Shown here: positions 3,968 through 34,051 of the stretch, piece after piece
Numbering within the stretch: the first letter of the stretch is position 1
Layout of the letters: each line of letters begins with the position of its first letter
DNA from: an uncultured Bacteroidales bacterium
GTDB taxonomy: Bacteria; Bacteroidota; Bacteroidia; Bacteroidales; Paludibacteraceae
Direction: 5' to 3'
Length of the DNA stretch: 64,000 nucleotides
Assembly (NCBI GenBank): GCA_902798385.1
Contig: CADBWK010000008.1
Coordinates: 13,723-77,722, forward strand
Program-made: the position numbers and the translations under genes
Notes under the pieces: generated by a model
Told to the model about the DNA's origin: nothing
The model's database searches: none
The model's input: only the letters and a program-made list of their open reading frames with translations

Positions 3968-3969
3968 AA

Positions 3970-13061: not shown

Positions 13062-16000
13062 ATGAAGACTAATAATTATTATATAAGGAGTCTGTTTATA
13101 GCGCTAATCGCTACGTTCGGTGTATCATTATTTGTACTTGCTGAAGGAGAAAAATCAGCCCCGGGTGGTTGGTATGACGATCCGGTTGTGTCGGTAGCAT
13201 GGAAAGACTATGTTACTTTCTCTACTGTGTATAACGGCAAGCGTTACTACCTTGGCGTGGACACCGTGGCTGCGAAAGCTACGCCAACTCCGGAATATAA
13301 GATCATGGCCTATAACGAGCCTAATTACGCAACGATGTGGATTGCCGGTCGTTTGTGGAGTTCGACGGGCGGCGAGCTGACCAACAAGGACTACACCCGT
13401 ACGATTCAAAGCGTTTGGACGCAAGAACGCTTACCGGGAAAGGATACACTCTATCTGGCTTTAGGTGATCCTGAGATTGCCGGTCAGCCCTATAACACTT
13501 TAATCCTCAGTTCTATCGGTACGATGTGGCATACGGCGAAGGATATCTACGCCACCGGTCGGTATATTCAGGGTTACATGTATTTCTATACCGAAGAGAG
13601 CGGTGTAGATAAATACCGTTACCTGACGTACGACCCGTTATATGAATTTGATCGTTTATTTGAGGCCCGTCCGTCGGAGTCGCAGCGTATATCGGTATGG
13701 GATCGCAAGACTGGCGATGACTTGGTGTTCAAAACCAATCCGACTTCTTATACCTTTGGACTGAAAACGAGCGCTGATACCACAAAGATTCGTTTTTCTT
13801 CTCAGGTGTCTTATTACCCGCATGTGGATCGTTTCCGTAGCCGCTATGCGCGTGTGGATGTCTATACGTTTGAACCGACAGTGATTGATAACCAGGAAAC
13901 GCTATTGGAAAAGCCTTATAGTATGGGCGGTCATTATGAGTGGAAATCCAACCCGCGTGGAGAAGGCGCTTACAACGGCCAGTCTCACATGAAGATGTAC
14001 TTGTGGACGGGGGAAATGTCGGCAGGTAGTCCGGTGATGGAATGGCGTGACTCCACCTTGTTATGGGTGAGCGATACGAAGAATCAACTGATTGATAACG
14101 AATGGGTTGATACCATCTTCGTTATCGGTAAGTCTCCATTTGATCGTCCTTCATGCCGCGTATTACGCAAAACAGGGGATGGTGCTCCGGCGGAAGGCGA
14201 TTATTTAGACCACGTCGATTGGTTATATGTGCATTTGCGCATCAATGGCAAATGGTATAAGGATTCCATCCAGTTGACGCGCGAGACTTTCCATGTGCGT
14301 TATGCTACTACCCTTACTATGGACGAAAGTCCGGGTGGATGGGAGTTCCCGTATTTCTATGATGGAAAGAAAGCGGATGGTACAACGCCTATTGGTACCG
14401 AAGGCACCAAAGATTTTGATATCAAAGCCCTCTACAGTGTAACGGTAGATACATTGCATTATAATGGCGCTTACGAGACAGGTGGTGTTTTGGAGGAGCA
14501 AACGCTGGATCTAACGGCACAAACGCCTCAAGAAATATCGAGCGTCAAATATAATGAGTTAATAGTCAACGCGTACGAGCCGGGTACAACTACCACGTGC
14601 TCGTGGTTGACTGCATCTACACCGGATAAGAAAACGGTACGCCTTGTGGCGAATGAGTACAATCCCTCTGCGACTGTAGATCGTATCGCCGAAGTACATT
14701 ATACCTATCGTTATCTGCACTCTACGCAGGAAGGTGACTGGTCGGAAGTGACGCGTATCATCTGGGTTTCACAGTTATGGAAGAGTTCCGGTGTGGCGGG
14801 CCTGTATGCTTTCAGTCATAAGCCGACAGCAGAAGAACTACAAGAGGTATATGAAAAAGACTATACCATCTATGCCATTCCGGATCAGAGTCTGCCATTA
14901 CCGCTCCATCGTGATCACTGGGGCTACTACCGTTGGTTCATCTATGAAGGTGATTACAAGGATCGAGACTTGGAGCATGACGACACCTGGGATTTTGGAT
15001 TGAATGCACCGACCAATGTGCGAAACCAGAACTTCATGCCTATTAACTACGCTACCTCTGCTGCTTCGCGTGGGCGTTGGGATGTTATTCGGGATATCAA
15101 TGCGGGTAATACAGAGTTCGAACCGGCTGCCGACAAAGAGCACTTTGAGGTGGGAAAACGAACGAAGATCCCATCCGTATATTATCCGAAGAGTATTACA
15201 AAGAATGGTAAGGTAGCATGCGACGTCAGTGCCTATTATGACATTCAAACTACCGGTTCTTCCAGTCCGGCATATGTGAAGCAGAACCTGACATCTCTGA
15301 CCGAGCCGACGCTGAGTTACCGTAATGTGTACAATATCCGTCCGGCAAAAGAACAAGCCGATAAATTGGCTACGTATAAAGGCAATGGTAGTGGTGCTAA
15401 TTGGATGGAGGAGCATACGGTCATTGTGCCGGCAGGACGTGAGTTTTCTTTGCAGCAGCTATATCCTGTGCAAAAAGGTGATGCTTCGATTGACACGGTG
15501 CATCTCCAGTATATCTATTATGCCAATCCGACACAAACGGATGCTAAAATCGGTACACGTGATGGTTTGACGGATAAACAACTGGAGGAGAATGACTATT
15601 ATGCTCGTATCGGTAAAGAAAAAACAATCGAGGAGAAGTATGTGCTAACGCTACGCACAGCTTCAGAGTTGCGCGGCATGACCAACGGTACCTCCAAAAC
15701 CATCATCCTTGTTAACCCACGAAACAATACAGGATATATTTTAGGAAAAGGAGCAAGACAGATTCCTGTCGCACTTCCTATCCCTAATGGGGCAACTACT
15801 AAAGCTGCTTTCAAAGATTCGCTAGAGAAGAAATTAAATGACGGAGGTACCTATGATTCGTATTTTATTACTATCAAACAAAACAAACGTTCGGGAGATT
15901 CTTATCATAATTTCTTATTTGGCGATTTCACACTCTATAATCTATACACAAGTAGTGCCGGAGAAGGAGAGCATAGAACGCAAAATATCCGTTGGTATGA

Positions 16001-19000
16001 CGGATGGGCTACCGGTAGTGAGGAATTCCGAATCGATGCTTACCCCGATGGTGGCAGTAAAGCAGATATGCCGGCTGGTTTTAGTTCGGGTGATTTAATT
16101 ACCATATGGACTACTCGCTGGGGATACACCGGTTATTTAGCTTCCGGTCAGTGGTCTGGTGGTACGTTTGACTATCGTATTTACAGACAAAGTAATAATA
16201 ATACTGCCTATCAAGCTTGGCTTATTTATGAAGTATCTAAAACAACAGCGCGTACCTATAACGAGACCCCGCGATGGGAGAAGTACAATGGCAGTACCAG
16301 TAAATGGGAGGAAGTGGAACGCGCATCAGACGAAGACCCTGATGGTTATACCATGCTGGCCGATGGTTCGCTGGCTTTTGATGATAATGTGCACAGAGCA
16401 GCAAATGAGACCATTCAGTACCGTCTGCGTACGGAGCATTTTCAACTTGCGAAGTTTACCGTCGTAACGCGTAACCCGAACTCTGAAGGTCCGCGTAACG
16501 ATGAGGCTATCATATCCGAAGAAGATATACAGAGTAACTACGAGACCTTGTTTACCCTTGGCCTTGAGAACTTTCCTGCACCTGCTTCGGATGAAGTTAC
16601 GGCTTATTACCACAAGTTGCCGTGGAATACGACGGAGTTGAGTTACCACTACCCTGTCGGAGATGAAGAGAACCAAATACCGGCAAACCGTCGCGTGGAT
16701 GGAACGTCTATGCTGCCGATGAAAGGTGAGTACTGCTTCCTTAATAAGTTCGTTGATCCGACCAACCCGAGTCATATCATCTCGGCGCGCGATAACTACT
16801 TCCTGTGCATCCAAGCGGCAGAGAAACCGACTACAATCTTCAATTTTGTCTATCCGGGTTTGACCTGTTCCAACCAACAGGTATTCCTTGGTTTCGATCT
16901 CTGTAATCCGGTGGACAATAGTTACGAGCCGCAGATTACCGCAGAACTGCAGGGTACGAAAGATGGGGGCTCAACATGGACTGCTATCTATCGCTTCAAG
17001 ACCGGTGAGATTAAGTGTAACCGTGATGGTAATCCTACACATGATTGGTGGCAAACGATATTGCCGATTGACCGTAAGTTGGTATCGGACTATGATTATT
17101 TCCGCTGTACGGCATCCCTTACCGGCACAACAGAAAGTAATGCATATATACTCATTGATCGTATGCGTTTTATCGAGCGCTCACGTTCCTTCTCTGTCTT
17201 CCAGAATAAATCCACCTGTATTAGGGACGACTCTGTGTATGTACAGGCGCGTATTGATTACACTGCGGATACTGCGCTCTATAAGACAGGCAAACTGGTG
17301 GCATACCAATTCCAAAGATGGGATAACACTGCTAACAGCGGAGCCGGAGGCTACGTGCCGGTATTGGCAAGTAAGACGACCGATGGAGGTGTGACCTATA
17401 CGCAGTTAACCAATGAGACTACGCCGAAGGCACAAATCTTCCCGGGGTATATCAAGGATGCCTTCACGGCCACAGAGTCCGTAACAAAGACATTTTTGAA
17501 GTCCACCATGGGCAATGACTACGGCTATGTGCTTATTCCGGAGCGAACCTATAACCCGGATAAGAGTGACGATCCTTCCAAGACCTCTACTGAACGCGGT
17601 AAACTTATAGACCGTGCGCTTGAATTACTGGAGATAACCGGAGATCCAGCAGCTACTCGCAAGGCTGCGTTCCTCAATGAGACCGGCAACGTCAAGACGC
17701 GTGATGAGGTGACCAGCCAGAGTAATATCGATTTCGGTACGTACTCCACACCGCATATCAAGTCGTTCGTGAACGAAGGTACGGATTTGGCTCCGCATTG
17801 GGTTATCTACCTCAATACCCGTTTACCGATTAGCGCAACAGATAACCGCACCTTCCGTATCGCAATGACCATCATGAATAGCGTCGATGATAAACCGACC
17901 TTCGCTGATGAGAGCTGTGCTACTTTCCGTGTGATCAACATCAAGCAAGCAGCCGAATTGCAAGTGGATGGCACAACCTGGACAAACCATACCCGTGCAG
18001 AGATTGAGGCGGATGATGCCTCCGGCGATGCACTCAAACTGCTGGAAGCCAACGAGACCTATCGCGCTTCGATACACTTGAATCTGCCATCTCCGCTGGC
18101 CGGACATGCTGTGTTGAATACGATCTGTAAGTTCGATCTCATGCATGCGCACGACAGCGTGCGGGATAGAACGGATGATGATGCCAACTTGGCATTCGAG
18201 CGCCGCTACGGTTGTACGCGTGCTGAGTTCTCTGATGCAATGGAGACCTTCCGTTCGAACGACCCGGACAACCCCATTCGTGAGCAATACGACTGGCGTA
18301 AGGTGCGCCCGATTGATTTCGCTTGGTCTCAGGCAGATCCGACAGTATTGACACCTCGTGCCCGTCGCAAATACGATGTGATTAACAAACTTATCACGGA
18401 TGGTGTGTTGGAGCTTGGTCTGGACTATCGTGATATCTACATGGGCGATAAGATGGATAGCTATTTCTATCTTATGCCGGTGCCTGCCAGTGGTTGGTTT
18501 ACTTGGGATGATGCTGGCCCATCCGGTCAGGATACGCTTGTACATGCTACAATCTGTAATGATACGATCTGGTTGGAGTTGCACTCTAAGGAACCGCTCG
18601 CTAAGTTGCGTTTCGGTTACGATAGCCGTGTGGGTGATACGTATATTGTACCTGTGATCCGTGCGTCGAAGACCGATGCGAATGAGCACCTAAAAGTGCG
18701 TATATCGGATATTACCCATACGGCATCCTCCGGTGCGGTCATCGGTTGGGACTCTACCTATATCGTGGATAGTAACGACCCCGACTGGTTAGCCGGAGGT
18801 ATATCTTTCCGTTACCACCAGGATCGTATCGTTCAGGAGCGCATCTTTGATGAGTACTATAAAGTACCGACCTCCGGAACAAAAGAAGAGAAAGAGGCCG
18901 ATGCCCATCGTTATGTGATCTTCCGCCCGGTAACAAGCGCCTATATCGATACGCTGAAGATGACCGATTGCCCGTGCTATGACTACCATGCCAATAAGAC

Positions 19001-21248
19001 AGAGTACAAAACGGGTACTACTAACGATGTTATGGAGCAGAAAGCCGCTACCGGTTGCAATAAATGGGGTGTCAAACCGCTCTTAAAGGGCGCTGCTGCG
19101 CACGAAGGAACAGCCGCACACGACATGCCTGGTTACCAGGTGGCGAATACTGCAGACTTTAGACTCAAACCTGGCTATTGGTATAAGTTCAAGACCGCTT
19201 TCTTCGATGTAAGTTCTACTATCAACCATGATGCCGGAGGAGATGGTACTTGTCTCGGACATGGCTATTTCATCGTAGCCGTAGCCCCGGATACCGTGCG
19301 TTGGACGCCGGCGAACCTCAGCGGTACGAACTACTGGAATGATGACTTGAACTGGACACCAGTCATGGCATCCAAACCGAGTGATGGCTTCAAAGCTATT
19401 GTGCCGATGGCTGATACGAAAGTGATCATCCCGCAGGTAGCCGAAGGACAACTGCCTGTCGTCATGGATTTGGTAGTGAATCAGAAAGACACGCTCGAAT
19501 ACGGCTACAAGCGCAATACATGTAAGGAGATACTCTTCAAGCCGAGTTCGCAGATGTTAGGTCAAGAGCGTCTGGAATACGAGAAAGCGTTCGTTGACGT
19601 GCTCTTCAAGACCGATAACTGGCAGACTTTCTCCCCGGCATTGAAGCATGTTAATTCCGGTGACCTGTACGTGCCGTTCAATGCGGCTACGTATAACAAA
19701 GCGAATCCGGCTACGGGTGCTTCTACGGATACCGTTGAGTTTGAGCCGAAGGCTTTCCCCTTAGGCATTACAAGCGGACTGACCTATAACCCGCGCTCGT
19801 ACCCATTCGCCTTCTACCAGGGCTTCTATAACTCTACCGTACGCGTAGCATTTAATAATACGGATGAGGACGGGAATCCGGTTGCTTACACCTATAGCAC
19901 CTCCAAGAACGAGGTGGATTGGGTGAAGACGAACCTGATCGATACGCTCTATCATCCGGGACAGGCCGCCGTCATCAATAGTTATGATGCGTATAATAAG
20001 GAGGGTAGGGAAATCGTTGTGTGCCTGCCGAAACCGGATAATACGTATTACACCTATGGCAAGAGTGGTGGCACCTATGCGGCCGGTCATTCCTATTCGA
20101 TGAAGAATGAGGACGGCGGTGCTCGTACGGCATCGGATCTGACGAAGAACCTGGCGTACGATAAGACGACCCTGACGAATGCTGGAGGCGAAGGCATTAC
20201 CTATACGCTGCATAACGCTACCGAATCGAAGATATTCTTCTTCGGTAACCCCACCATGGCGCTGGTCGATGTCTATCAGTTATGCGTGGATAACGCCGGC
20301 GTGCTGGAGCACGATGGTAGCGAGCATAAGTTCACAGCATACCAGTTGGCAGAAGGCTCGAGTTATACCGTCAAGCCTATCACGGCTCGCGGTCAGTATT
20401 TCATCGCGCCGCAACGTGCCGTAGGTCTGGTAGCCGATGCTGCTCATACTACATCCAAGACCCTTCCGGTTAAACTCACACCCGAAGCACTTGTAGCGCT
20501 GACAGGCGATGGTATGGTCGTTAGTCAAGAGGATATCAAGCCCATGCCGCGTCGTATGACCAATGACCAAGCGGTAAATGAGAAACGTCTCTATATCACG
20601 GCTGCTAACGAGACCGATGCCGGTATCCGAAAGGCTTATCTCACTCTGGGTGAACAAGAAGACGCTAGCCGCGGATTCCGCAAAGGCGAAGATGCGCTGT
20701 CCCTCTCGTCCGGTAAGCATTACTTCAATTATGGTGCGTTCTCGACACCGATTAGCCTATACACGATCGCTGATAACGAGGCCCTCATGATGGATATACG
20801 CGACACGCTGAACCGCGTACCGGTAGTGTTCTCGACGATTGATGCGAAGTTCGACATCAATAACTATACCCTCTTGACCTTCTCCATGACGGGCAATTGG
20901 GATAAACCGCTATACCTCTATGATGCCGTAAGTAACGACAGTGTGCTTATCCGAAATGGTCTGCAGATTGCTATCGAGACCCCGCTTAATGATCAGATTC
21001 GCTACTTCATTAACGGTTCTAAGCGCGTGACAAGTGAAGAGAACCAGCAAGGCACAGCGACGGGCATCGAGGAGGTAAATGACCAATTACCAAATACCAA
21101 TTACCAATCGGGTACCGTTATTTACGATGTACTCGGACGCAAAATTATGACACTGAACGAATATGACCTTATCTCCAATATCCATCTGCCGACAGGTGTA
21201 TATATCATACAACGCGGTAGTAATACGGAAAGGATGGTGATTAGATGA
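13062..21248 (+). CDS. Giant secreted surface protein G1 (2728 aa) with T9SS-like C-terminal tail
   Basis: Single uninterrupted ORF with signal peptide MKTNNYYIRSLFIALIATFGVSLFVLA. The C-terminus TVIYDVLGRKIMTLN...LPTGVYIIQRGSNTERMVIR resembles a Por/T9SS sorting domain. It is paralogous to G2. Confidence 0.9.
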   Translation: MKTNNYYIRSLFIALIATFGVSLFVLAEGEKSAPGGWYDDPVVSVAWKDYVTFSTVYNGKRYYLGVDTVAAKATPTPEYKIMAYNEPNYATMWIAGRLWSSTGGELTNKDYTRTIQSVWTQERLPGKDTLYLALGDPEIAGQPYNTLILSSIGTMWHTAKDIYATGRYIQGYMYFYTEESGVDKYRYLTYDPLYEFDRLFEARPSESQRISVWDRKTGDDLVFKTNPTSYTFGLKTSADTTKIRFSSQVSYYPHVDRFRSRYARVDVYTFEPTVIDNQETLLEKPYSMGGHYEWKSNPRGEGAYNGQSHMKMYLWTGEMSAGSPVMEWRDSTLLWVSDTKNQLIDNEWVDTIFVIGKSPFDRPSCRVLRKTGDGAPAEGDYLDHVDWLYVHLRINGKWYKDSIQLTRETFHVRYATTLTMDESPGGWEFPYFYDGKKADGTTPIGTEGTKDFDIKALYSVTVDTLHYNGAYETGGVLEEQTLDLTAQTPQEISSVKYNELIVNAYEPGTTTTCSWLTASTPDKKTVRLVANEYNPSATVDRIAEVHYTYRYLHSTQEGDWSEVTRIIWVSQLWKSSGVAGLYAFSHKPTAEELQEVYEKDYTIYAIPDQSLPLPLHRDHWGYYRWFIYEGDYKDRDLEHDDTWDFGLNAPTNVRNQNFMPINYATSAASRGRWDVIRDINAGNTEFEPAADKEHFEVGKRTKIPSVYYPKSITKNGKVACDVSAYYDIQTTGSSSPAYVKQNLTSLTEPTLSYRNVYNIRPAKEQADKLATYKGNGSGANWMEEHTVIVPAGREFSLQQLYPVQKGDASIDTVHLQYIYYANPTQTDAKIGTRDGLTDKQLEENDYYARIGKEKTIEEKYVLTLRTASELRGMTNGTSKTIILVNPRNNTGYILGKGARQIPVALPIPNGATTKAAFKDSLEKKLNDGGTYDSYFITIKQNKRSGDSYHNFLFGDFTLYNLYTSSAGEGEHRTQNIRWYDGWATGSEEFRIDAYPDGGSKADMPAGFSSGDLITIWTTRWGYTGYLASGQWSGGTFDYRIYRQSNNNTAYQAWLIYEVSKTTARTYNETPRWEKYNGSTSKWEEVERASDEDPDGYTMLADGSLAFDDNVHRAANETIQYRLRTEHFQLAKFTVVTRNPNSEGPRNDEAIISEEDIQSNYETLFTLGLENFPAPASDEVTAYYHKLPWNTTELSYHYPVGDEENQIPANRRVDGTSMLPMKGEYCFLNKFVDPTNPSHIISARDNYFLCIQAAEKPTTIFNFVYPGLTCSNQQVFLGFDLCNPVDNSYEPQITAELQGTKDGGSTWTAIYRFKTGEIKCNRDGNPTHDWWQTILPIDRKLVSDYDYFRCTASLTGTTESNAYILIDRMRFIERSRSFSVFQNKSTCIRDDSVYVQARIDYTADTALYKTGKLVAYQFQRWDNTANSGAGGYVPVLASKTTDGGVTYTQLTNETTPKAQIFPGYIKDAFTATESVTKTFLKSTMGNDYGYVLIPERTYNPDKSDDPSKTSTERGKLIDRALELLEITGDPAATRKAAFLNETGNVKTRDEVTSQSNIDFGTYSTPHIKSFVNEGTDLAPHWVIYLNTRLPISATDNRTFRIAMTIMNSVDDKPTFADESCATFRVINIKQAAELQVDGTTWTNHTRAEIEADDASGDALKLLEANETYRASIHLNLPSPLAGHAVLNTICKFDLMHAHDSVRDRTDDDANLAFERRYGCTRAEFSDAMETFRSNDPDNPIREQYDWRKVRPIDFAWSQADPTVLTPRARRKYDVINKLITDGVLELGLDYRDIYMGDKMDSYFYLMPVPASGWFTWDDAGPSGQDTLVHATICNDTIWLELHSKEPLAKLRFGYDSRVGDTYIVPVIRASKTDANEHLKVRISDITHTASSGAVIGWDSTYIVDSNDPDWLAGGISFRYHQDRIVQERIFDEYYKVPTSGTKEEKEADAHRYVIFRPVTSAYIDTLKMTDCPCYDYHANKTEYKTGTTNDVMEQKAATGCNKWGVKPLLKGAAAHEGTAAHDMPGYQVANTADFRLKPGYWYKFKTAFFDVSSTINHDAGGDGTCLGHGYFIVAVAPDTVRWTPANLSGTNYWNDDLNWTPVMASKPSDGFKAIVPMADTKVIIPQVAEGQLPVVMDLVVNQKDTLEYGYKRNTCKEILFKPSSQMLGQERLEYEKAFVDVLFKTDNWQTFSPALKHVNSGDLYVPFNAATYNKANPATGASTDTVEFEPKAFPLGITSGLTYNPRSYPFAFYQGFYNSTVRVAFNNTDEDGNPVAYTYSTSKNEVDWVKTNLIDTLYHPGQAAVINSYDAYNKEGREIVVCLPKPDNTYYTYGKSGGTYAAGHSYSMKNEDGGARTASDLTKNLAYDKTTLTNAGGEGITYTLHNATESKIFFFGNPTMALVDVYQLCVDNAGVLEHDGSEHKFTAYQLAEGSSYTVKPITARGQYFIAPQRAVGLVADAAHTTSKTLPVKLTPEALVALTGDGMVVSQEDIKPMPRRMTNDQAVNEKRLYITAANETDAGIRKAYLTLGEQEDASRGFRKGEDALSLSSGKHYFNYGAFSTPISLYTIADNEALMMDIRDTLNRVPVVFSTIDAKFDINNYTLLTFSMTGNWDKPLYLYDAVSNDSVLIRNGLQIAIETPLNDQIRYFINGSKRVTSEENQQGTATGIEEVNDQLPNTNYQSGTVIYDVLGRKIMTLNEYDLISNIHLPTGVYIIQRGSNTERMVIR
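21082..21109 (+). repeat. In-frame heptamer array (ACCAATT/ACCAAAT)x4 in G1
   Basis: accaattaccaaataccaattaccaatc encodes QLPNTNYQS at the start of the C-terminal tail. Confidence 0.9.
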
Positions 21249-21679
21249 GGAGATTGATAGGTATATTAGTTTGTTTATGGGTAGCGACAAGCCTGTTTGC
21301 CGTTACATACCAACCTTGCAAGCCGGCTGCCTTCCGGACGACTTCTGCTTACGTGGCGCCGATGCAGAGCGCATCGCATACGATGAGTATGAATACGCAA
21401 CGTCCTTTGGCCTCCGGTTCGCTCTCCGCTATCAGTGCCTCTAATTTCGAGATGCTGAATAGCGAAGGAGGTTGGTGCGCAGCTACATCGGCTACATCCA
21501 CCAGACCGCAAGTCCGTAAGGGCGGACGTCCGGATGAAGACGAAGGAGGTGACAATGGTAATCCTATCGGTGTATATGATAACCACTCTCCTATCGGCGA
21601 CACGCCGTGGATACTATTCGGACTACTACTGATAGCCTACGGAGCTTTCAAATGGAAAAAGAAAAGTGCAGAAATCTAA
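21245..21679 (+). CDS. Small exported, C-terminally membrane-anchored partner protein S1 (144 aa)
   Basis: The ATG overlaps the G1 stop (ATGA at 21245-21248). It has a signal peptide, a Ser/Thr/Pro-rich middle, an acidic patch DEDEGGD, and then SPIGDTPWILFGLLLIAYGAFKWKKK. It is a paralogue of S2. Confidence 0.75.
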   Translation: MRRLIGILVCLWVATSLFAVTYQPCKPAAFRTTSAYVAPMQSASHTMSMNTQRPLASGSLSAISASNFEMLNSEGGWCAATSATSTRPQVRKGGRPDEDEGGDNGNPIGVYDNHSPIGDTPWILFGLLLIAYGAFKWKKKSAEI

Positions 21680-21698
21680 TGTTTCTGCATTTTTTTTG
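21666..21698 (+). terminator. Rho-independent terminator after S1
   Basis: TGCAGAAA-tctaatg-TTTCTGCA followed by T8. Confidence 0.8.
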
Positions 21699-21706: not shown

Positions 21707-21738
21707 CTTGCGTATATCAAATATTTGTAGTACTTTTG
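21707..21738 (+). promoter_or_regulatory. Orphan promoter-like element
   Basis: CTTGCGTATATCAAATATTTGTAGTACTTTTG has the full 32-nt architecture. No conventional ORF follows it. Confidence 0.55.
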
Positions 21739-21753
21739 CAACGGATTTTGGAA

Positions 21754-21829
21754 AAACGGACAAAATCAGCATAAAACATATTGGAAAAACGGACAAATTC
21801 TGATATTTCCTGTTGCGTAAACGGACAAA
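21754..21829 (+). repeat. Three phased copies of AAACGGACAAA
   Basis: Copies are at 21754-21764, 21787-21797 and 21819-21829, spaced 33 and 32 nt apart. Confidence 0.8.
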
Positions 21830-21859
21830 TGAAAATTGCCGCAAACAAGAAGGTCCGAT

Positions 21860-21949
21860 CATCTATCACCCCGAATTGCCGTAATCTTCGCTCTGCAGCT
21901 CCTTGCATACGGAGCTTTCAAATGGAAAAAGAAAAGTGCAGAAATCTAA
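21860..21949 (+). pseudogene. Degenerate fragment of an S-family C-terminal tail
   Basis: The frame reads HLSPRIAVIFALQLLAYGAFKWKKKSAEI*, against S1 HSPIGDTPWILFGLLLIAYGAFKWKKKSAEI*. There is no ATG; the only candidate start is a TTG at 21836. Confidence 0.6.
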
Positions 21950-21968
21950 AGTTTCTGCATTTTTTTTG
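21936..21968 (+). terminator. Duplicate copy of the S1 terminator
   Basis: TGCAGAAA-tctaaag-TTTCTGCA followed by T8. It is part of a 61-nt direct repeat (21638-21698 vs 21908-21968, 1 mismatch). Confidence 0.75.
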
Positions 21969-21974
21969 ATTTTG

Positions 21975-23371: not shown

Positions 23372-23415
23372 ATCACGCAAAATCCTTAACTTTCGGTCAA
23401 TATTTCCACCCAAAC

Positions 23416-23447: not shown

Positions 23448-23468
23448 CAGTTTGTAACGTGTAAAGGT

Positions 23469-26400: not shown

Positions 26401-29400
26401 TCACGCTCAGTCATGGCGGAATCAGCAAGATCAAGGAGTACTACGGTCTTTGGAAGGAAGGAGCACCGGGACTGCACGTGAGTGCGAGCGGTATGGAGCG
26501 CACGCGCAATGTCATCGTGCGTACGAAGACCTATCACTACGGTCCTACGCACTCGCATCTGGAGCTGATACCGGAGTTCAAAGAGTATTCTTTCAATCCC
26601 ATGGCTGGTGTGAGTCGCACGATTAATTTCATCCTCAGGAAAGTGAACACGCATCGGTTGGTAGATGTAAATGACCATTCGGTAGGCGAAGAAGAGATCG
26701 TTTCTATTGATACGATCACTGCCAGCCTGGACCTCGATCCGGCGAATTGTACGTTCGCTTCAACCAAAGCATCTCCGGGCACGTATTTCTCTGTTAGTGA
26801 GGCCGACGATCATCACGTAACCCTCACGACGCGCGAGATCAATAAGACGGCTAACAATCTGGATACCCTCATTATCTCGACAACCGTCACAATCGAAGAC
26901 GTAGCGTATCCCGCATCGGTCCGCGTGCCGTTGGTTCAAACCTCGTTGGAAGGAGATGAGTTGATATGGTCCGTAGTAAGTGGCACCCAACGCTATTATA
27001 TCATGGCGGGCACAGGCGGCTTGATCTTCCGTAAATATAATGTAAGCAATTCGACGCTCTATAAGGAAGGAACGACTAATGGGGTGCTCAAAAAGGGCTC
27101 GAAAGATGCAGAGAACAGCGACAATCAGTATATCACGCCGTGGCACTTTAGCTATCATCCGGATAACGCAGATCAATTGGCATTGAAAATCGAGTACGGC
27201 GTCAATCGCCATTTCAAGATGCTTGGCGATGCGACGGGCTCAAAGGCCGATATTCATGCGTCTGACTCGTCTTTCCTCTACTATGACTATGTGGATGTCT
27301 ATACCAATGACAACGCCAATGAGGAGGAGTTGGTAAAACTGCAATTCGGTACCAAATGGTTGAAGTTTACGCAGACAGGCGGTAGCGGCGCAGAATTGGT
27401 ATTGGTAGATACGAAAGAAGAGGGATCTGTTTTCTCGTGGAGTTATCTGAAGCGAGAGTACAACCTATACCAGAAGCATGGCTATCCCAACCGCGGCGGT
27501 AACACGAATAACAAAGTCGATTCCGTTACCTTCGATTATAACACCAATATATCCGTGAAAATTCAGTCGCGCTATAAGGCATATAAGGATTTCTCGATGC
27601 TGGTAGGCAATAATGTGGTTTATTGCTGTCGCGAAGATGAGGAAACGATCGCCAACCTGGTTGATCCCGCTAAAGAATGGAGGACGCGTTACGAAATCGA
27701 ACGTATCGCAGATGCGCGCACATTCGATAGCGGATCCACGCCAAGCCCTGCAGTCAGTGGACTGAGCTTCTCGCTGAGTACGACCGATCTGATCTCGACC
27801 ATCTCGACCTCAAGCGTGAAAACCAGTCCGAGAAATGTAAAGATCGGCGGCAAATACGTAAATATCGTCGATACGCTTCATGTGAAGCTCTCGTTGCAGG
27901 ATGGTGCTCCGGAGTATTACTTCCGAAATGACTGGAAAGACTTCAAGAGCATCGACGATGCAGAACTTAAGATTCCGCTGATTCGTAAGACCTACCACTC
28001 CGCTAACTACGACTCGCTCGTATGTACGGTAGAAGGCGATGAGTATAACTATACCTTCCCCAATACGCTTCCGGAAGGAGAGCCTGTATCCCATACCTTC
28101 ACTCTCGGAACGCTGCGGCGCTACGGTGAGTTCGTATTAGACGTAGATAACACGCAAGTAGCGACAATAGATCCGCATGAAGTAGACGTGACGGTATCCG
28201 GCCTCATGAACCTATCCAACTCAGCAATGGCGGAAATCCGACTGATGGACGAATTCGGTCACACGCCGAGTTGGTGCGAAATAACCGGAAAGACCGAGAA
28301 TACGATTACCGTCCAATGTACGGAGGACGGTATCCGCTCGCCTCGTACGGTATATGTATACATCGTCTATATCATCATGCTGGACGAGATGCGTATCGTG
28401 ACCGAGCGTTTGGCTATATCCCAACCGAGTGTGTACCAGTACGCAAATAACCAACACCTGGTACATACATCCGGCGCATCGGGAGATCCGTTGGACGTAC
28501 TGGGTATGCAGCAGGTACACGAGAACAAACGTATTCTCTACTATTATCCGGACCAGGATGTAGAGTTGCCGGTCCGCGACAGCCACTTCTTCGGTTGGTG
28601 GAGATGGTTCCGCGAGGGAGAAGGAGAAATAGGTGATTCCGATATCCCGGCCGAAGCATGGCGTCAACAACCGCGAAATGTAGATAAGAAATTTAACTAT
28701 CCTTTCCGTATCATCGGTGACTCGGTGAATGATCCGGAGAATCCGGGTAAGAAGAAACTGGTAACGATGGGTCGTTATACGGTGTTCCACTACAGGTCAA
28801 AGGACTATACCGATGCAAAGAAAGATCCTCCTTGTAAGACGGTCACGGTAGTTCCTCCTGTTACGGAATTCGGATTGGCAACCAAACCAACCTATACATA
28901 TGCGGTTGAAATCAGTAACTACTACGATAACCTGCCGATGTCCGCATCACAGAAGAACCAAGTAGATGTCAATAAACTGGATACCATGACCGCCATTTAT
29001 GAGCCGACCTTGTCACTGCGCGAGGTATTTGAGTTACGCCCGTGGACGGAGATGGCTGCACGGATGGAGGGATTTAAGACAACGATTGGTTCCGGCGAGA
29101 GAGCGGATACATCAGTGGTATGTCCGTTAGCAGATGAGCTTTACATGGAAGACCATGTGATGATGGCACCGCTGGGCAACGAATTACTGCTCTCCACGGA
29201 GCAACGCTATAAAAAGGAAAACCTGGCAGCAAATAAGCACTCAGAGTCGTTGTTAGGTTACTATATGCGCGACGATAACTGGAATGAGTGGAGTGAGAAC
29301 AAAGTACGTCAAGACACCATGATCTGGTGCGGCGGATGGGATGCAAACTGCCAATGGTATACCTACGATCCGAAGACGCAGAAATACTCGGAATGTACGC

Positions 29401-32400
29401 ACTCGATCACAACGAGTGACGACTTCCTGCAAGTACCGGCTAAGGAGAATATCCCTGCGGGTAAGGAGTTCGATACAGTTTATTACTGCTTGCGTGCACG
29501 GAGTCAAAAGACGACAGGTACGCCGGGATCGACTGAAACAACAGTGGATGGAGATTATATGTTCAATATATGCCGCTACAAGCTCATTTACCATCAGCCG
29601 ACCAAATACGGCCCGTTGGTCGAAAACCAAGGCAAAGCGCTGATCACCAATGAGGAGATTGCGCAAAACTACGAGGTACTGGAGCGACTGAACTTCGATT
29701 ACAACCAGCCGGGACCCGAATATACGGTTTATCCGCATCCGTTGCCCTGGGCAGATGCTTCGTACGGCTATACCTATCCGGAGACACCGGATCTGCCGCA
29801 CAACCGACTGCACGAGCACTCGGATTTCCCGAACCACGGCGAGTACGGACTGATTAACCGCATTCCGGAGGCATCCCATTGGGGCGGTAATGTGACGTCC
29901 TACTGGCGTCCGATAGAGCAACACGGAGGAGCCGAAAACGGCTATATGATTTATTGCGACGGTATGTCCTCATCCGGTCAGGTAGCTGCCCTCTCGTTGA
30001 CAACGCATCTATGTGCCGGTCAGAAGATGTTCTTCTCGGGCTACGTATGCAACCCGAGTAACCAGACCGGTAAGTCCGATCCGAACTTCACCTTTGCCGT
30101 ACAGGGTTCGGTCAACGGAACGGATTGGGAAGATATCACTTCGTATACCACGGGAGGTATCAAGCCGTCGAATCCGAGCAAGTGGAGCCAGATCTATTTC
30201 CCGATTATATTCAACGAGGACATCGATTATAAGCATTTCCGCGTGCGGATCTATAATGTATCGTCAGACTGGGATGGAAACGACTTCATCATTGATGATA
30301 TGTGTATCTTCGCAACCAAGCCGCCGTTGATCGCCTATCAAGCCAACACGGCATGTAAGGAGAAGAGCGAGGAGGAAACCCCATCGCATATGATCTTGCG
30401 TGTGGACTATCAGGGTATCACAGGTGAGGGATACAACGACTCTACTGTATGTTATACCGTCAAATGCGATAGCGCCGTAGGGGGGACAGGTTTCGTACAC
30501 ATGCTGGACGACTATCTGGACGAACAGACGAACCCCGGCAAGCCGGGAACGACAGATCCGGATACGATATACGGACGGTTGTTTATTCCGGGTAAACTGT
30601 ACGAACCAACGGATCCGGATTCGATCTTCGTCAACATGAACGAGTTGATCGATACCTTCAATGTATCGAATGGTGTATTCAAAGAAGGTTATATCTACGA
30701 GATATTGGAAGGTGATATCCGTCCCGTGAAATACGTCGTGCATAGCGCCTATCTAAATGCGAAGGATACGTTCACGGTACATATGTCGGCTGCCTATAAG
30801 GATATGTTGAGTAGTATCTGCGGTATGACGAGTTACCTGAAGGTAAGTAACATGATGGTGCTCGAACTGAACGGCGAGGAGGTGCCTGACATGGCGCAGA
30901 ACGATCTTTGCGCGAACGCAACGTATGATATCGGTTTGCGCGTGAAGGGTTCGCTCTATCTTGATAGTGTCGCGCCGATTAACCTGAATGGAACTTGTGT
31001 CAACGACTGGTTGCTGTATGGCGATACCGCTGAGGCGACGAGTGAGGCTACCTACGGCTATAAATACAGCGATATCGTGAAGGTAGTGAAGGACATCCTG
31101 CGTTGCGAGCCGAAGGGAACGACCAATGCCAACCAGTTTGCAAAGAACATGGCAGCAGTCAGCCGAGACGAGATGCTACGTATCCAAAAAGCAGAGAAGT
31201 GTACCCTCTCAGTAGAGACGCATCCGTACGATATCTTGACTGATCTGGTGGATAACGGTTTCCTGACGCTCTATCAATCGAGCATGACCGCGACCGTTTA
31301 TTCAGGCGATTCGATACAATATGTGATCTTCCCGATACTCGGTACAGGTACGGACACCAAGCAACACTCCAGTGTGGAGGTTTGTCCATTACCGATATTG
31401 ATTAAACTCAAACCGGATCCGGAATCAGCCAAAGCACCCCTCATCGTAGGTGGGCTGAATCGCGACCCGAGTGAGATGAATCAACCGGTCATTGTGCTGG
31501 CCGATGCGACCCGTGCCAACCAAGAGATCACGCTTAAGGTAGACTCTATTATGGGCCGCGTGGGTATCAAAACGGTAGAGCTGCTTTCTACCGAAGACCC
31601 GCTCTTCCGCGAAGGAATCCACTCGTTGGCTTTTGTTCCGGATCGAGACTATCCGTCCGGGGATTACTACATCAAAGGCAATACCATCACCCTGCATCCG
31701 GCGAGCAGCAATAACTATCAGATGCGTCCGGGCTATAGCTATACCTACGGTATTGTGATGCAGACCATTCTCGGTAGGGATACTTTAGATGGAGGTTGTG
31801 AAGTGGGAACGATTCCTTTCACCCTCTCCGTTGTACCGAATTACCTGCGTTGGGATCCGCAAGATACGGAGAGCAATGAATGGAATACCCCGGGCAACTG
31901 GATTGGAATTGACCAGCAGAATAGGCCGATTCATGACAATGCACGCTTTGCGCCGCTCAATACTACCGCCATCATCATCCCGGAGATAACCGACGGTAGA
32001 CCTTATCCGGAACTGCCGGACCTTACCGCTCCAGCTACCTATGACTCCGTTAAACAGGTGGGATTCCAATATAATAAGTGCGATTATATCCGCTTCATGC
32101 CGGGTGCTGCGATGAGTCAGCAGCAACGCATGGAGTATTCCCAGGCCATCATCGATATGCCGATGCCGTATAACGAGTGGGCCTTCCGTTCTGCTCCTGT
32201 CAAGGGTATGATCTCCGGAGACCTCTTCATGGCGAATGCCGACCTGCATGAAGAAACCTCGCCTTGGGAGGTAGGTCCGTTCGATGCGACCGGACGTACG
32301 CATAAGACGGGCAATGCTTCCTATTGGCTCTCGCTCTATAGTACGACCACCGTTCGTAAAACGAAAACGGAGTCTGAAGAACGCACAGATGATGCGGCAT

Positions 32401-33614
32401 GGTCGAAAGTGACCAACGGTATGACACTATCCCTGCCGCCGGCCCAAGGATTCGCTGTCTATGCGCGTACCACCTCACACGATCCAGCAGCCGTACGTCT
32501 TCCTAAGAACGACGATATCTACTACTATTACGATACCAACGGCAATAAAGTAGAAGAGCTGTATGAACAGAACTTGCAGACCCTGCGTAACTCCGCTGAG
32601 TATGGAAACGGTCACGCCGGCGAATTAGCCTTCCATCCGTCAGGGGCTTCGGAGAGTTATGGGCTTACCAAAGGCGTAGCCTCCAAATCTTTTGTCTTCG
32701 GTAATCCTACCATGGGTTATATCGATATATGGGGCTTCATCGCGGATAATACGCGCCTCAAAGAAGAGATTGGTTACATGGCCTCGGGTAGTAATTATAC
32801 GACAATCAGTAAGTCCGCTGCAGAGGAAAATCCTGCCACAGATGTTATCACCAACCAGCAGCGCTATCTGCCGCCGATGCATGCGATGGTAATAACGCTC
32901 AAAGATGCCGAAGCGGATGCGCTAACCCTCAGTGTGACGCTCAATACCAACCGTGTCCTCACCTCGCCGAGCAAGAAAGCGGCACGTCCGGGTATGCCCA
33001 GACGTATGTCCGGAAGTAGGTACCCGCAGGCGATCATGACTGTCACGGCGACCAATGCGGCCTCGCCGCGATGCCTGAGTCGACTGCTCGTCGGTCAGGG
33101 ATATCATGACGCGGTATATGAAGGTGAAGACGCAGTGCTTACGACCCTCAGTATTGATAAATATACCAATAATACGACGCCCGCTACGCCGTTTAACCTC
33201 TATGCGGCGGAAGGAGAGTATGGTCTGTGTATCGACCTGCGTGACTCGATCGTGAACATCCCGCTGTCGTTCTATCTGAGCGACCTGCCCTTCGAGCCGA
33301 CCACGCGTCTGTGGTTCACCGGTGTGAACAAGATGAGCGACTACCTCGTGCTCTATGATACGATTTCGGGCACGGAACGACCTATCGCTGATGGTATCTA
33401 TATCGATATCCAAACGCCGGAGCAGAGCCATGAGGTGCGCTATTATATCCGTCGTCGCGGGTATAAACAGCAGACCGGTTCTGACGTTACGACGGACTTT
33501 GAACCGGCTGAGGCGAAAGACGACGAGCAGGTAGTGAAATTTATTGAGAATAACCATGTATATATCCTGCGCCGCGGACAATTATATACTATATTAGGAC
33601 AACGAGTACAATGA
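23469..33614 (+). CDS. Giant secreted surface protein G2 (about 3381 aa), paralogue of G1
   Basis: I chose the ATG at 23469 (MKSVMKRYIFSLFFIVCALVRVHA signal peptide). The track start at 23445 is a TTG inside the -7 box. The protein contains a Listeria-Bacteroides-repeat-like segment (GGFNFTGWTRNPDGTGGTYHPGDEIDL). The C-terminal tail is KFIENNHVYILRRGQLYTILGQRVQ. Confidence 0.9.
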   Translation: MKSVMKRYIFSLFFIVCALVRVHAVGWLPVEGGLVVNLNQGDQILLSVWLDVNNNGVEDEGEEYFINNYNRYTGGRFNYGAGLYLKLIPQEEGVSAASTMSKWTVGAPLTRSDDINGSGGQGKHANFDPLGGTYYTIWNDGRTLRTQKPRSSDASNYQFVGNLTPDGVSGYDDQYSCDVVFVIPTARSTTTSFDPNKTLTTRYGRTDQDAQGRFNGKTGTGFLGMTYREVYMMVLPRYNAPVSYANTALVTFNTTTSTIPNNTWRNAGEVAPGKAAFAFADTDGRPYYHTTRTVFRLYILNDPINSCSSYFFATDEQDYRKYRTGPGGKQNLKWADSTDLTKSYTMDHLTCMSRVGSTQYYQTDLMYVPIPDSTYFYVGYNDDYKAAISGQTMGSGGSHSQFTKIRELPIFGLEDTLKAPAGACGRMVADTTSSVDNLDVKFKPAGFFLKVSPTGTNVQMRPNADSTIWTCEEMWHITDAYAAMQIKATTFSGPEFSATDEGKDIAGWSVNVVGTSVPLASDHSQHVDGDMDGWARIYANRSEPNGYMEFIMANPDHHIHYDNNKLLGNQVPDQYPEQGKTKVIVEEPRLVGGFNFTGWTRNPDGTGGTYHPGDEIDLKDEGTVLTLYAQGTYTGTYHVAFSFEHSNGKRYFLTQPVGSAVRYARARPVGNWTDTYQGMSDAYNTEPNYISTYKLLTGATDCPRCSPGEYVLDPCREMRHGAVDSLLFYENFAPDNEVYLGLYFDDRSTPFKDPVTIVANNTWAGLFTSKEGWPDYSVADVQNTKLKSEYYLHRVDGNITRDPRPSRDSSYVKYNEALDQFDGVETAEEATTFQISRVRVADEHYVVLPDTSHAWNDTIEFGYHHGEQVREQVWTSLIGKQLLAVTKVGDDTVYFHPNPDKIITNANDLYLSSDFRVSQYFTLIRDSRVSAALEEGDSVTTETTSNYWHNNIVSGLNSPIDVTDGEGHYIDIIDTFRITLSHGGISKIKEYYGLWKEGAPGLHVSASGMERTRNVIVRTKTYHYGPTHSHLELIPEFKEYSFNPMAGVSRTINFILRKVNTHRLVDVNDHSVGEEEIVSIDTITASLDLDPANCTFASTKASPGTYFSVSEADDHHVTLTTREINKTANNLDTLIISTTVTIEDVAYPASVRVPLVQTSLEGDELIWSVVSGTQRYYIMAGTGGLIFRKYNVSNSTLYKEGTTNGVLKKGSKDAENSDNQYITPWHFSYHPDNADQLALKIEYGVNRHFKMLGDATGSKADIHASDSSFLYYDYVDVYTNDNANEEELVKLQFGTKWLKFTQTGGSGAELVLVDTKEEGSVFSWSYLKREYNLYQKHGYPNRGGNTNNKVDSVTFDYNTNISVKIQSRYKAYKDFSMLVGNNVVYCCREDEETIANLVDPAKEWRTRYEIERIADARTFDSGSTPSPAVSGLSFSLSTTDLISTISTSSVKTSPRNVKIGGKYVNIVDTLHVKLSLQDGAPEYYFRNDWKDFKSIDDAELKIPLIRKTYHSANYDSLVCTVEGDEYNYTFPNTLPEGEPVSHTFTLGTLRRYGEFVLDVDNTQVATIDPHEVDVTVSGLMNLSNSAMAEIRLMDEFGHTPSWCEITGKTENTITVQCTEDGIRSPRTVYVYIVYIIMLDEMRIVTERLAISQPSVYQYANNQHLVHTSGASGDPLDVLGMQQVHENKRILYYYPDQDVELPVRDSHFFGWWRWFREGEGEIGDSDIPAEAWRQQPRNVDKKFNYPFRIIGDSVNDPENPGKKKLVTMGRYTVFHYRSKDYTDAKKDPPCKTVTVVPPVTEFGLATKPTYTYAVEISNYYDNLPMSASQKNQVDVNKLDTMTAIYEPTLSLREVFELRPWTEMAARMEGFKTTIGSGERADTSVVCPLADELYMEDHVMMAPLGNELLLSTEQRYKKENLAANKHSESLLGYYMRDDNWNEWSENKVRQDTMIWCGGWDANCQWYTYDPKTQKYSECTHSITTSDDFLQVPAKENIPAGKEFDTVYYCLRARSQKTTGTPGSTETTVDGDYMFNICRYKLIYHQPTKYGPLVENQGKALITNEEIAQNYEVLERLNFDYNQPGPEYTVYPHPLPWADASYGYTYPETPDLPHNRLHEHSDFPNHGEYGLINRIPEASHWGGNVTSYWRPIEQHGGAENGYMIYCDGMSSSGQVAALSLTTHLCAGQKMFFSGYVCNPSNQTGKSDPNFTFAVQGSVNGTDWEDITSYTTGGIKPSNPSKWSQIYFPIIFNEDIDYKHFRVRIYNVSSDWDGNDFIIDDMCIFATKPPLIAYQANTACKEKSEEETPSHMILRVDYQGITGEGYNDSTVCYTVKCDSAVGGTGFVHMLDDYLDEQTNPGKPGTTDPDTIYGRLFIPGKLYEPTDPDSIFVNMNELIDTFNVSNGVFKEGYIYEILEGDIRPVKYVVHSAYLNAKDTFTVHMSAAYKDMLSSICGMTSYLKVSNMMVLELNGEEVPDMAQNDLCANATYDIGLRVKGSLYLDSVAPINLNGTCVNDWLLYGDTAEATSEATYGYKYSDIVKVVKDILRCEPKGTTNANQFAKNMAAVSRDEMLRIQKAEKCTLSVETHPYDILTDLVDNGFLTLYQSSMTATVYSGDSIQYVIFPILGTGTDTKQHSSVEVCPLPILIKLKPDPESAKAPLIVGGLNRDPSEMNQPVIVLADATRANQEITLKVDSIMGRVGIKTVELLSTEDPLFREGIHSLAFVPDRDYPSGDYYIKGNTITLHPASSNNYQMRPGYSYTYGIVMQTILGRDTLDGGCEVGTIPFTLSVVPNYLRWDPQDTESNEWNTPGNWIGIDQQNRPIHDNARFAPLNTTAIIIPEITDGRPYPELPDLTAPATYDSVKQVGFQYNKCDYIRFMPGAAMSQQQRMEYSQAIIDMPMPYNEWAFRSAPVKGMISGDLFMANADLHEETSPWEVGPFDATGRTHKTGNASYWLSLYSTTTVRKTKTESEERTDDAAWSKVTNGMTLSLPPAQGFAVYARTTSHDPAAVRLPKNDDIYYYYDTNGNKVEELYEQNLQTLRNSAEYGNGHAGELAFHPSGASESYGLTKGVASKSFVFGNPTMGYIDIWGFIADNTRLKEEIGYMASGSNYTTISKSAAEENPATDVITNQQRYLPPMHAMVITLKDAEADALTLSVTLNTNRVLTSPSKKAARPGMPRRMSGSRYPQAIMTVTATNAASPRCLSRLLVGQGYHDAVYEGEDAVLTTLSIDKYTNNTTPATPFNLYAAEGEYGLCIDLRDSIVNIPLSFYLSDLPFEPTTRLWFTGVNKMSDYLVLYDTISGTERPIADGIYIDIQTPEQSHEVRYYIRRRGYKQQTGSDVTTDFEPAEAKDDEQVVKFIENNHVYILRRGQLYTILGQRVQ

Positions 33615-34051
33615 TGCAGCATAAATTCCAAATCATCGCATGGCTTTTCGCCATCTGGATGCTATGTAGCATCACGCCGGTGAACGCCACGCCGCAGGCT
33701 TCTTACCCTGCGGCATGGAGCACCACGCCTACGTTGAGCACTGATGCCTGTCCCGCGTACCAGTTCCGCTCCACCTCCTCGTTGCCGCTCGTCGTTGGTA
33801 CGACTTCCTACACCGGTTCTATGTCCTATACCCCGGGCGCAAGACCCGGAAATATACGTCGCAATACCCCCGGGTGGGGAGACCCGGACGACGATGACGA
33901 TGAAAACCTGCCGCAAGGTGTCGTTCCGGTCACCCCTATTGGCGATACGCCGTGGATCCTGATAATGTTATTTTTATTTGCGTATATCGGAAAAAAGCAG
34001 TATCTTTGCAGCCGATTCGTAAAGCATGGATTTTTTAGACCAACTAAATAA
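33611..34051 (+). CDS. Small exported, C-terminally membrane-anchored partner protein S2 (146 aa)
   Basis: The ATG overlaps the G2 stop (ATGA at 33611-33614). It has a signal peptide, the segment FRSTSS, an acidic patch DPDDDDDE, and then TPIGDTPWILIMLFLFAYIGKK. Its 3' end overlaps the uvrD promoter and start. Confidence 0.7.
   Translation: MMQHKFQIIAWLFAIWMLCSITPVNATPQASYPAAWSTTPTLSTDACPAYQFRSTSSLPLVVGTTSYTGSMSYTPGARPGNIRRNTPGWGDPDDDDDENLPQGVVPVTPIGDTPWILIMLFLFAYIGKKQYLCSRFVKHGFFRPTK
33977..34008 (+). promoter_or_regulatory. Promoter for the helicase gene, embedded in the S2 coding region
   Basis: TTTGCGTATATCGGAAAAAAGCAGTATCTTTG. The -7 box ends 17 nt before the ATG at 34026. Confidence 0.7.

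Follow-up and report, generated by a model that had tools for sequence, protein, structure and literature searches.

In logic, the described system closest to the locus reported here is type IX secretion (T9SS) of type B with its PorP/SprF proteins, as in the SprB-SprF pair of Flavobacterium johnsoniae, where a very large Bacteroidota adhesin has a private partner encoded downstream. Cargo of type B requires a cognate accessory protein whose gene lies immediately downstream, and cognate pairs diversify together (PMC12618676). We analysed a stretch of 64,000 nucleotides from an uncultured Bacteroidales bacterium (contig CADBWK010000008.1; this whole stretch is called the window), in which two genes for giant secreted proteins, G1 and G2, are each followed by a small gene, S1 and S2, whose start codon overlaps the stop codon of the giant gene. 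In form, the small proteins, collectively called S, are closest to proteins with C-terminal sorting signals (PEP-CTERM with exosortase, LPXTG with sortase, GlyGly-CTERM with rhombosortase). Such proteins have, like S, a signal peptide, an often Ser/Thr-rich body and a C-terminal motif accompanied by a helix and a basic cluster.

Two further systems can be compared by function. The lipase LipA has a partner, Lif, which is encoded immediately downstream, anchored in the inner membrane and facing the periplasm, and which acts before outer-membrane secretion. In ToxR/ToxS and TcpP/TcpH a membrane-bound activator is found beside a small single-pass protein and the surface or virulence genes under its control. 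Literature searches for a T9SS partner of the S kind found no description of one.

Pairing of giant and small genes

A scan of metagenome contigs for the G1-type pattern returned 22 loci, 21 of which include the 3' end of the giant gene. All 21 carry an S-like open reading frame (ORF) directly 3' of the G1-type gene; stop and start codon share the tetranucleotide ATGA in 16 of them and are separated by gaps of 12-31 nt in the remaining five. This test covers the G1 family only and shows a conserved syntenic unit there, the point that an earlier note on this DNA had set out as a check. The ATGA overlap was also found at loci L001, L003, L005, L006 and L007. Three distant G1 relatives, located in unrelated housekeeping neighbourhoods, are likewise followed by a gene for 132-148 aa with a 4-nt overlap.

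The same association is seen when starting from the small gene. All 12 S-like genes that were retrieved independently and had enough flanking sequence (six genome loci found with the S pattern and six contig look-ups) adjoin a large secreted-protein gene on the same strand, with giants of 757 aa, 1393 aa or 2000-3350 aa. More distant S-like genes adjoin giants of 1393-2377 aa, and in a bin labelled Bacteroides uniformis the gene for a 757-aa protein with a T9SS tail is followed by an S-like gene. Orthologues of G2 (L009, L012 and L041) carry partners of the S2 type, the ATGA overlap being repeated in L041. Locus L046 contains two pairs of giant and S-like genes with a GH88 gene between them, one pair having a 4-nt overlap. 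In L036 the order is inverted: the TGA of a gene for a 160-aa protein of a variant type, S', overlaps the ATG of a 2328-aa giant, and a second S' gene and its giant are 12 nt apart.

On this comparison of sequences the pairing of giant and S genes is far beyond chance. Both ATGA overlaps in the window were confirmed (Table 1). Since diverged copies keep the overlap of stop and start codon, giant and S appear to be selected as a co-translated unit, which agrees with the selection on co-translation that had been proposed from the two copies in the window; the 16 of 21 G1-type loci lend it further support. Because the inverted order in L036 is still ATGA-coupled, the selected property is tight co-expression or coupling of the small and the giant gene and not one fixed geometry. 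A frameshifted fusion of giant and S was considered and rejected, as elsewhere the two are separate genes with gaps of 6-80 nt and in inverted order.

The other three giant genes in the window had been described as lacking a partner, and this was confirmed. A six-frame search of the window found the S motif at two places only, S1 and S2, and a hidden Markov model (HMM) of the C-terminal module of G1 has no match in these three giants. The genes downstream of them encode a uridine kinase, a Na+/H+ exchanger and a DUF3575 protein.

Polymorphic toxin/immunity pairs typically consist of a small gene overlapping the 3' end of a very large secreted-protein gene, and small genes overlapping the 3' ends of such genes are what we observe. 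The giant could be a secreted toxin with S as its membrane immunity protein, or S could be a spurious or functionless ORF kept by chance; taken together, these explanations strike us as extremely improbable. Giants of the G1 family are conserved to the last residue and end in a sorting domain, with no variable toxin tip, and the S motifs are common to different giant families and do not vary with a toxin. A spurious ORF is excluded by purifying selection, 723 sequence clusters and conserved motifs, as described below.

The small partner and the giants

S1 consists of a signal peptide (approximately residues 1-19), a Ser/Thr/Gly-rich body containing the motifs FRTTSAY and SAISASNFEMLNSEGG, the sequence SPIGDTPW, a transmembrane helix and the tail KWKKK. 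S2 has a signal peptide, the motif YQFRSTS, an acidic stretch, TPIGDTPW, a transmembrane helix and a basic tail. BLASTP aligns the two only over PIGDTPWIL and the start of the helix (13 of 18 residues identical); profile searches put them in one family. These searches yielded 226 and 172 clusters at 90% identity, and an exhaustive search gave 723 representatives at 50% identity, the best 150 of which are 83-234 aa long. Measured against relatives, dN/dS of S lies between 0.18 and 0.44, with 0.14 for the adjacent end of G1. Because of the 226, 172 and 723 clusters and these dN/dS values, S is evidently a real protein, translated and under purifying selection.

The PxG motif and the basic tail are present in all of 239 S members, and a hydrophobic helix, often with Tyr, follows the motif in 237. 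The mean charge is -4.2 before the helix and +4 after it. A signal-like hydrophobic N-terminal segment was found in 118 of 120 members of the G1 type. The motif P-[VI]-G-[DE] is invariant and preceded by IGE, with an acidic stretch between motif and body, and the body is rich in Ser, Gly, Thr, Ala and Pro (S 18%, G 10.5%, T 9%). Across all types of S the only invariant residues are G109, P116 and G118 in S1 numbering. Since S combines a Sec signal peptide with a C-terminal helix that has an acidic outer and a basic inner flank, it is predicted to reside in the inner membrane, the body facing the periplasm and the tail the cytoplasm. Classification of S as a lipoprotein was rejected, the Cys at residue 10 following Leu-Val and not forming a lipobox.

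Each type of S has its own body motifs: F[RS]STSAY and SAISASNFE.LNSEGGACY in the G1 type, AW.TTPTLS and YQFRSTS followed by W[DE] and an acidic run in the G2 type, and APISVRTSDKTFRSFS..GVGSFV.MH in S'. The S' partners are located upstream of their giants, in L013 (5309-5920), L036 (2144-2626 and 10001-10417) and L038 (10001-10495). The body motifs thus go with the giant family, an adaptor-like pattern.

In L010 (9206-11935) an S-like protein with SPIGDTPW, a helix and KRNKQKR continues in frame and without a stop into a protein of ~600 residues. This extension opens with a signal-peptide-like segment of its own, suggesting either a fusion or two genes in one frame.

Neither Pfam, NCBIfam nor PDB searches gave a match for S, in line with the earlier statement that the pair cannot be assigned to any named system. 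A Pfam search with 42 members found only NPDC1, in two of them at E 0.005 or weaker, and no PorP/SprF match.

The C-terminus of S could also be a new cleavable sorting signal of the sortase, exosortase or rhombosortase type, composed of P-[VI]-G-[DE]-x-P, the helix and the basic cluster. A dedicated enzyme would then cut S and transfer its Ser/Thr-rich, possibly glycosylated body to a lipid, a polysaccharide or the surface, and mature S would act as a co-adhesin or anchor for the giant, which comes close to the anchoring or display device considered in the earlier note. Such a signal would fit the tripartite architecture at the extreme C-terminus of 239/239 members, the concentration of conservation at the outer edge of the helix and the Ser/Gly/Thr-rich body. 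Many PEP-CTERM proteins are Ser/Gly/Thr-rich in their body. At relaxed thresholds, moreover, only models of C-terminal sorting domains recur among the weak S matches. However, all of them stay below their cut-offs: PEP-CTERM at 12.5-13.6 bits (cut-off 16), Heimdall-CTERM at 17.3 (24), JDVT-CTERM at 11-14 (27), MYXO-CTERM at 12.2 (15.85) and LPXTG at 11-12.8 (15.9). In the window the motif is confined to the S genes, and a scan of 185,579 species genomes with the S pattern, which is narrow, matched only 31 stretches, with six loci confirmed. The best 150 of the 723 representatives are all small stand-alone proteins and not diverse tagged cargo, the S' subfamily has no signal peptide, and no candidate sorting enzyme was found in any neighbourhood read. 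We consider a sorting signal of this kind unlikely.

Paralogy of G1 and G2 was borne out by BLASTP, which aligns the two in three collinear stretches (638 aa at 26% identity, E 2e-41; 331 aa at 25%, E 1e-18; 236 aa at 26%, E 2e-12) containing every peptide pair quoted in the earlier note. Relatives of G1 form ~100 full-length clusters of 2500-2770 aa with conservation from end to end, and an alignment of 26 sequences of the family has a mean column identity of 48%. By inspection, G1 begins with the Sec signal peptide MKTNNYYIRSLFIALIATFGVSLFVLAEG. Apart from a borderline T9SS tail on G1, neither giant has a match in Pfam or NCBIfam, and a profile of the G1 family gave no usable match against PDB sequences.

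Structures were predicted from an alignment of 29 rows. AlphaFold2 models residues 560-1460 of G1, which hold two of the blocks common to G2, as all-beta with a mean predicted local distance difference test score (pLDDT) of 78. Foldseek matched this model to CBM16, CBM28, CBM22, MAM, gingipain K3 adhesin and Pmt MIR domains with E 1e-4 to 1e-3 and probabilities of up to 1.0. Because of these jelly-roll, carbohydrate-binding module (CBM)-like and MIR-like folds, the model suggests that G1 is a glycan-binding, lectin-like adhesin. The C-terminal 700 residues are predicted to be all-beta as well, with beta-sandwiches (pLDDT 71); Foldseek with a 701-residue C-terminal model found nothing below E 0.07 in the PDB. 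The HMM of the C-terminal module of G1 matches G2, L009, L012, L013, two genes of L036, L038, L044 and L048.

At its extreme C-terminus G1 carries a T9SS type A sorting domain (C-terminal domain, CTD). The model TIGR04183 scores 23.2 bits on the isolated 75-aa tail (cut-off 23; E 5e-5) and only 16.6 bits on whole G1, and 13 of 14 tails of the G1 family match it at E <= 0.01, the best at 1.4e-6. The assignment is thus borderline for G1 alone and convincing for the whole family. The conserved tail of G2, KFIENNHVYILRRGQLYTILGQRVQ, is a different one and in isolation has no match to TIGR04183 even at E <= 1; hhalign aligned G2-type and type A tails over only 14 columns with a probability of 40%. 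Models of the type B CTD match neither G1 and G2 nor their tails, and no genes for T9SS components were found within the 64-kb window.

The membrane AraC regulator and the layout of the locus

The gene between S1 and G2 encodes an AraC-family protein in which residues 15-216 contain about 5-6 hydrophobic segments and residues 313-388 a C-terminal helix-turn-helix (HTH) domain, HTH_18. Pfam assigns PF12833 (HTH_18) with E 1.1e-19 and 70.9 bits (cut-off 33.6) and PF00165 with E 1.4e-9. The earlier note had treated this gene as a separator between two modules. Instead, it belongs to the G2-S2 module as its upstream element, because an AraC in L048, 48% identical over the full length, directly precedes the gene for a 1393-aa G-like protein with the C-terminal module and a type A CTD, followed by an ATGA-coupled S-like gene. 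A second family of membrane AraC proteins flanks cassettes in which S' precedes the giant (L013, L036/37 and L038-40). A membrane AraC accompanies giant and S cassettes in five independent contexts. Within 6-10 kb of most G1-type cassettes there is no AraC. The membrane AraC is an optional third element that probably controls the operon.

The direct repeats of AAACAATACGTAAAAA around the AraC stop codon (Table 1) are possible binding sites for the regulator. The sequence has four matches in the window with 0.39 expected, and none of 100 shuffles reached four. A different repeat pair is seen by eye in L048, and in L036 AATTGTTTACGTTGTTG occurs twice and resembles the reverse complement of the window repeat; both are suggestive only and were not used as evidence. 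L036 contains a pair of TTTACGTTGTT at 1430-1467 similar to the window repeats, and about nine tandem 11-nt units (ATACATTCCCG-like) at 1805-1910, between divergent small genes and the first S'/giant pair.

With such a regulator close by, S might be its signalling partner, as ToxS is for ToxR and TcpH for TcpP. S would report production or export of the giant and thereby provide feedback on a costly gene, its helix or juxtamembrane motif contacting the membrane domain of the regulator. Consistent with this idea, a membrane AraC stands beside giant and S in the window, in L048 (in the order AraC-G-S), in L013, in L036/37 and in L038-40, the stretch from the AraC gene to the G2 promoter holds three direct repeats, and the sole universally conserved part of S is membrane-proximal. 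However, most G1-type cassettes keep S with no AraC in the range given above, and S, being translationally coupled to the giant, looks more like a stoichiometric partner than a regulator. We regard a signalling role as quite improbable.

The description of the locus as two tandem modules stood with respect to the modules, both of which are real, and failed with respect to their arrangement, which is not conserved. DNA comparison with the close relative L014 (82-88% nt identity) gives the order LolA-TrxB-G1-S1-pcrA. The block AraC-G2-S2 (~21750-34000, ~12.3 kb) is missing there and in L032/33, and S1 is followed by pcrA. Other relatives keep the block: for cluster members of G1, S1, AraC and S2 alike, the longest contig on record is one and the same, of 65,183 nt. 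The tandem layout is evidently polymorphic and incidental, the unit being the two-gene cassette. Since tandem pairs are also found in L036 and L046, tandem cassettes appear to arise repeatedly.

Several features around the block were noted in addition. An 87-nt direct repeat places a second copy of the S1 3' end, including helix, tail and terminator hairpin, 270 nt downstream, and 2-3 copies of GGAAAAACGGACAAA lie between the two copies. Mutually similar promoter-like sequences (GCGTATAT...GTAyyTTTGCA) are found at both edges of the indel, at 21710-21745 and 33980-34015. At the far end, the gene for a PcrA/UvrD helicase begins within S2, whose final codons overlap both the -7 box GTATCTTTG and the start codon, at 34026, of the helicase gene (span 34000-34051); the S2 tail is unusually long and resembles a read-through into the pcrA promoter. 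The 87-nt copy and the running of S2 into the promoter and start of pcrA are traces of rearrangement.

The Bacteroidetes promoter consensus is TAnnTTTG, and candidate -7 elements precede both giant genes (Table 1). The longest frame of G2 opens at TTG 23445. As this codon lies within the Bacteroidetes-type -7 box TACCTTTG, the first ATG, at 23469, was taken as the likely start; the resulting 3381 aa agree with the length estimated in the earlier note. The housekeeping genes upstream of G1 (3374-12829) comprise an Rnf operon for electron transport on the - strand, followed by FtsK, a LolA-like protein and thioredoxin reductase. By its position between trxB and pcrA, G1-S1 is a chromosomal locus and not an obvious mobile element; megablast of pcrA against plasmids gave no match and a plasmid origin is not suggested.

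Table 1. Positions of the features of the two modules in the window
Feature	Position	Strand	Remarks
Candidate Bacteroidetes -7 promoter element of G1	12950-12957	+	TACTTTTG; read from sequence
G1	13062-21248	+	2728 aa; giant secreted protein; ORF map
G1 all-beta region	14739-17441	+	residues 560-1460; predicted jelly-roll (CBM-like) and beta-trefoil (MIR-like) folds
G1 C-terminal module	19143-21011	+	residues ~2028-2650; common to G2 (BLASTP E 2e-41) and most S-associated giants elsewhere
G1 T9SS type A sorting domain	21096-21245	+	~residues 2679-2728; extreme C-terminus
ATGA, G1 stop / S1 start	21245-21248	+	
S1	21245-21679	+	144 aa; partner of G1
Terminator-like hairpin and T-run closing the G1-S1 operon	21667-21698	+	hairpin scored on - strand; duplicate scored on +
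Relic of S-gene 3' end with terminator	21882-21968	+	86% identical to 21612-21698; reading '...AVIFALQLLAYGAFKWKKKSAEI' and stop
Membrane-embedded AraC-family regulator	22153-23328	+	391 aa
Three direct repeats of AAACAATACGTAAAAA, 20-nt spacing	23316-23371	+	straddle the AraC stop; 70-120 nt upstream of the G2 -7 box
Candidate -7 promoter element of G2	23440-23447	+	TACCTTTG; by inspection
G2	23469-33614	+	3381 aa from the likely start; giant secreted protein; distant paralogue of G1
G2 C-terminal module	31701-33524	+	residues 2745-3352; homologous to the G1 module; hmmsearch domain E 1.2e-149
ATGA, G2 stop / S2 start	33611-33614	+	
S2	33611-34051	+	146 aa; partner of G2

The remainder of the window holds further large genes. 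A type V pilus-like operon on the - strand (44851-63853) encodes a 1624-aa Laminin_G_3 protein, DUF3575 and DUF5119 proteins, two Mfa_like_1 fimbrillins and a 3234-aa giant. The Laminin_G_3 gene (58979-63853) has a G2-type tail and no S partner. The 3234-aa giant has no family match; its end (IYDILGRRY...GIYIV) resembles a T9SS tail by eye, with no model support. The 1524-aa 'giant' at 38056-42630 on the - strand is something other than an adhesin: over the C-terminal 440 residues it matches the Bacteroidota model TamL (translocation and assembly module) with E 7e-90, below the model cut-off, and it has an N-terminal membrane helix. A 277-aa ORF with a C-terminal end that by eye looks like that of an outer-membrane protein precedes this gene.

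A possible role of S and comparison with described systems

Our preferred explanation, held tentatively and at rather less than even chances, is that S serves as a cargo-dedicated inner-membrane escort or tether for its giant. A ribosome finishing the giant ORF would reinitiate on S at the overlapping AUG, and S would enter the membrane where the giant does. After cleavage of its signal peptide S would expose a disordered periplasmic body held by the C-terminal helix, acidic outside and basic inside. Through the motifs specific to the giant family this body might bind the cognate giant, and the juxtamembrane P-[VI]-G-[DE]-x-P motif together with the helix could dock S in the membrane or on a common machine. 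S would then hold or hand over the giant until the outer membrane is crossed. In favour of this explanation are the pairing, the architecture of S, its adaptor-like motifs, the C-terminal module found in most S-associated giants, the recurrent membrane AraC and the precedent of T9SS type B cargo with its accessory protein. The pairing, the coupling, the protein features and the CTD of G1 are shown; topology, binding to the giant and escort role are what we infer. Anchoring or display at the cell surface, as suggested earlier, is not the most natural reading, as the charge pattern of the helix predicts an inner-membrane protein with a periplasmic body. To act as an anchor on the outer surface, S would need further processing.

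Several observations weigh against an escort. Overlaps of 4 nt are the commonest in bacterial operons, and the geometry alone indicates an operon and not a mechanism. With its conserved motif on the outer helix edge and its basic cluster, S also shows the pattern of a cleavable sorting signal. A periplasmic body is hard to square with the lack of a signal peptide in the S' subfamily; S'-related members sharing the motif 'GD.LLP' (P0455, P0441 and P0467) do carry one. Giants of the G2 type have no recognisable T9SS CTD, so S is not tied to that signal, and the S-associated giants of L010, L011 and L046 have no C-terminal module detectable by HMM. Cargo with a type A CTD, finally, relies on PorV as its general shuttle, and no need for a private partner is known (PMC12618676).

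In a wider sense, it is possible, if somewhat doubtful, that S represents an unrecognised class of cargo-specific accessory factor for export or display of giants in Bacteroidota, either as an inner-membrane adaptor or as the substrate of a new dedicated C-terminal sorting system. If the adaptor form is true, private cargo would be delivered to the secretion machinery, including G2-like giants with no known signal, hinting at an undescribed route. Together with the membrane AraC, S would make up a self-contained module to sense, make and export giant adhesins.

Little is understood of how Gram-negative cells handle proteins of 300-370 kDa on the way from the Sec translocon to the outer membrane. 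T9SS type A cargo depends on general machinery alone (PMC12618676); a conserved, coupled private partner would point to an extra, cargo-specific step. The cassette is widespread and unannotated in uncultured Bacteroidales, which by source name are Paludibacteraceae and RUG assemblies and point to gut or rumen, and the S family, with more than 700 clusters and no annotation, also accompanies giants without a recognisable T9SS signal. Because of the lectin- and CBM-like folds and the gut and rumen Bacteroidales sources (Paludibacteraceae, RUG assemblies and the Bacteroides uniformis bin), the giants likely have a part in attaching to plant fibre, to mucus or to other cells. The S motif offers a simple marker for giant-adhesin cassettes, and the G and S families merit Pfam/NCBIfam models.

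Compared with the described systems, the likeness to LipA/Lif is a functional analogy only: Lif is anchored N-terminally and is a helical scaffold, whereas S is anchored C-terminally and looks disordered, and there is no sequence similarity. The same holds for ToxR/ToxS and TcpP/TcpH, as the regulator here has an AraC/XylS-type HTH on a polytopic membrane domain; in contrast to ToxS, S is coupled to the giant cargo gene and not to the regulator gene, and most cassettes have no adjacent regulator. The sorting signals resemble S in form, but S has a motif of its own, P-[VI]-G-[DE]-x-P, which in the window and among the best 150 of the 723 representatives occurs in one family of small proteins beside giants instead of on many cargos. 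PorP/SprF is an outer-membrane beta-barrel, whereas S is a low-complexity protein of 115-210 aa with one C-terminal alpha-helix, of a size incompatible with a barrel, and is predicted in the inner membrane. In place of a type B domain G1 has a type A CTD, and G2 has neither. What S1 and S2 have in common with the type B PorP/SprF systems is a partner gene directly downstream of its cargo, an arrangement that recurs in 21/21 loci.

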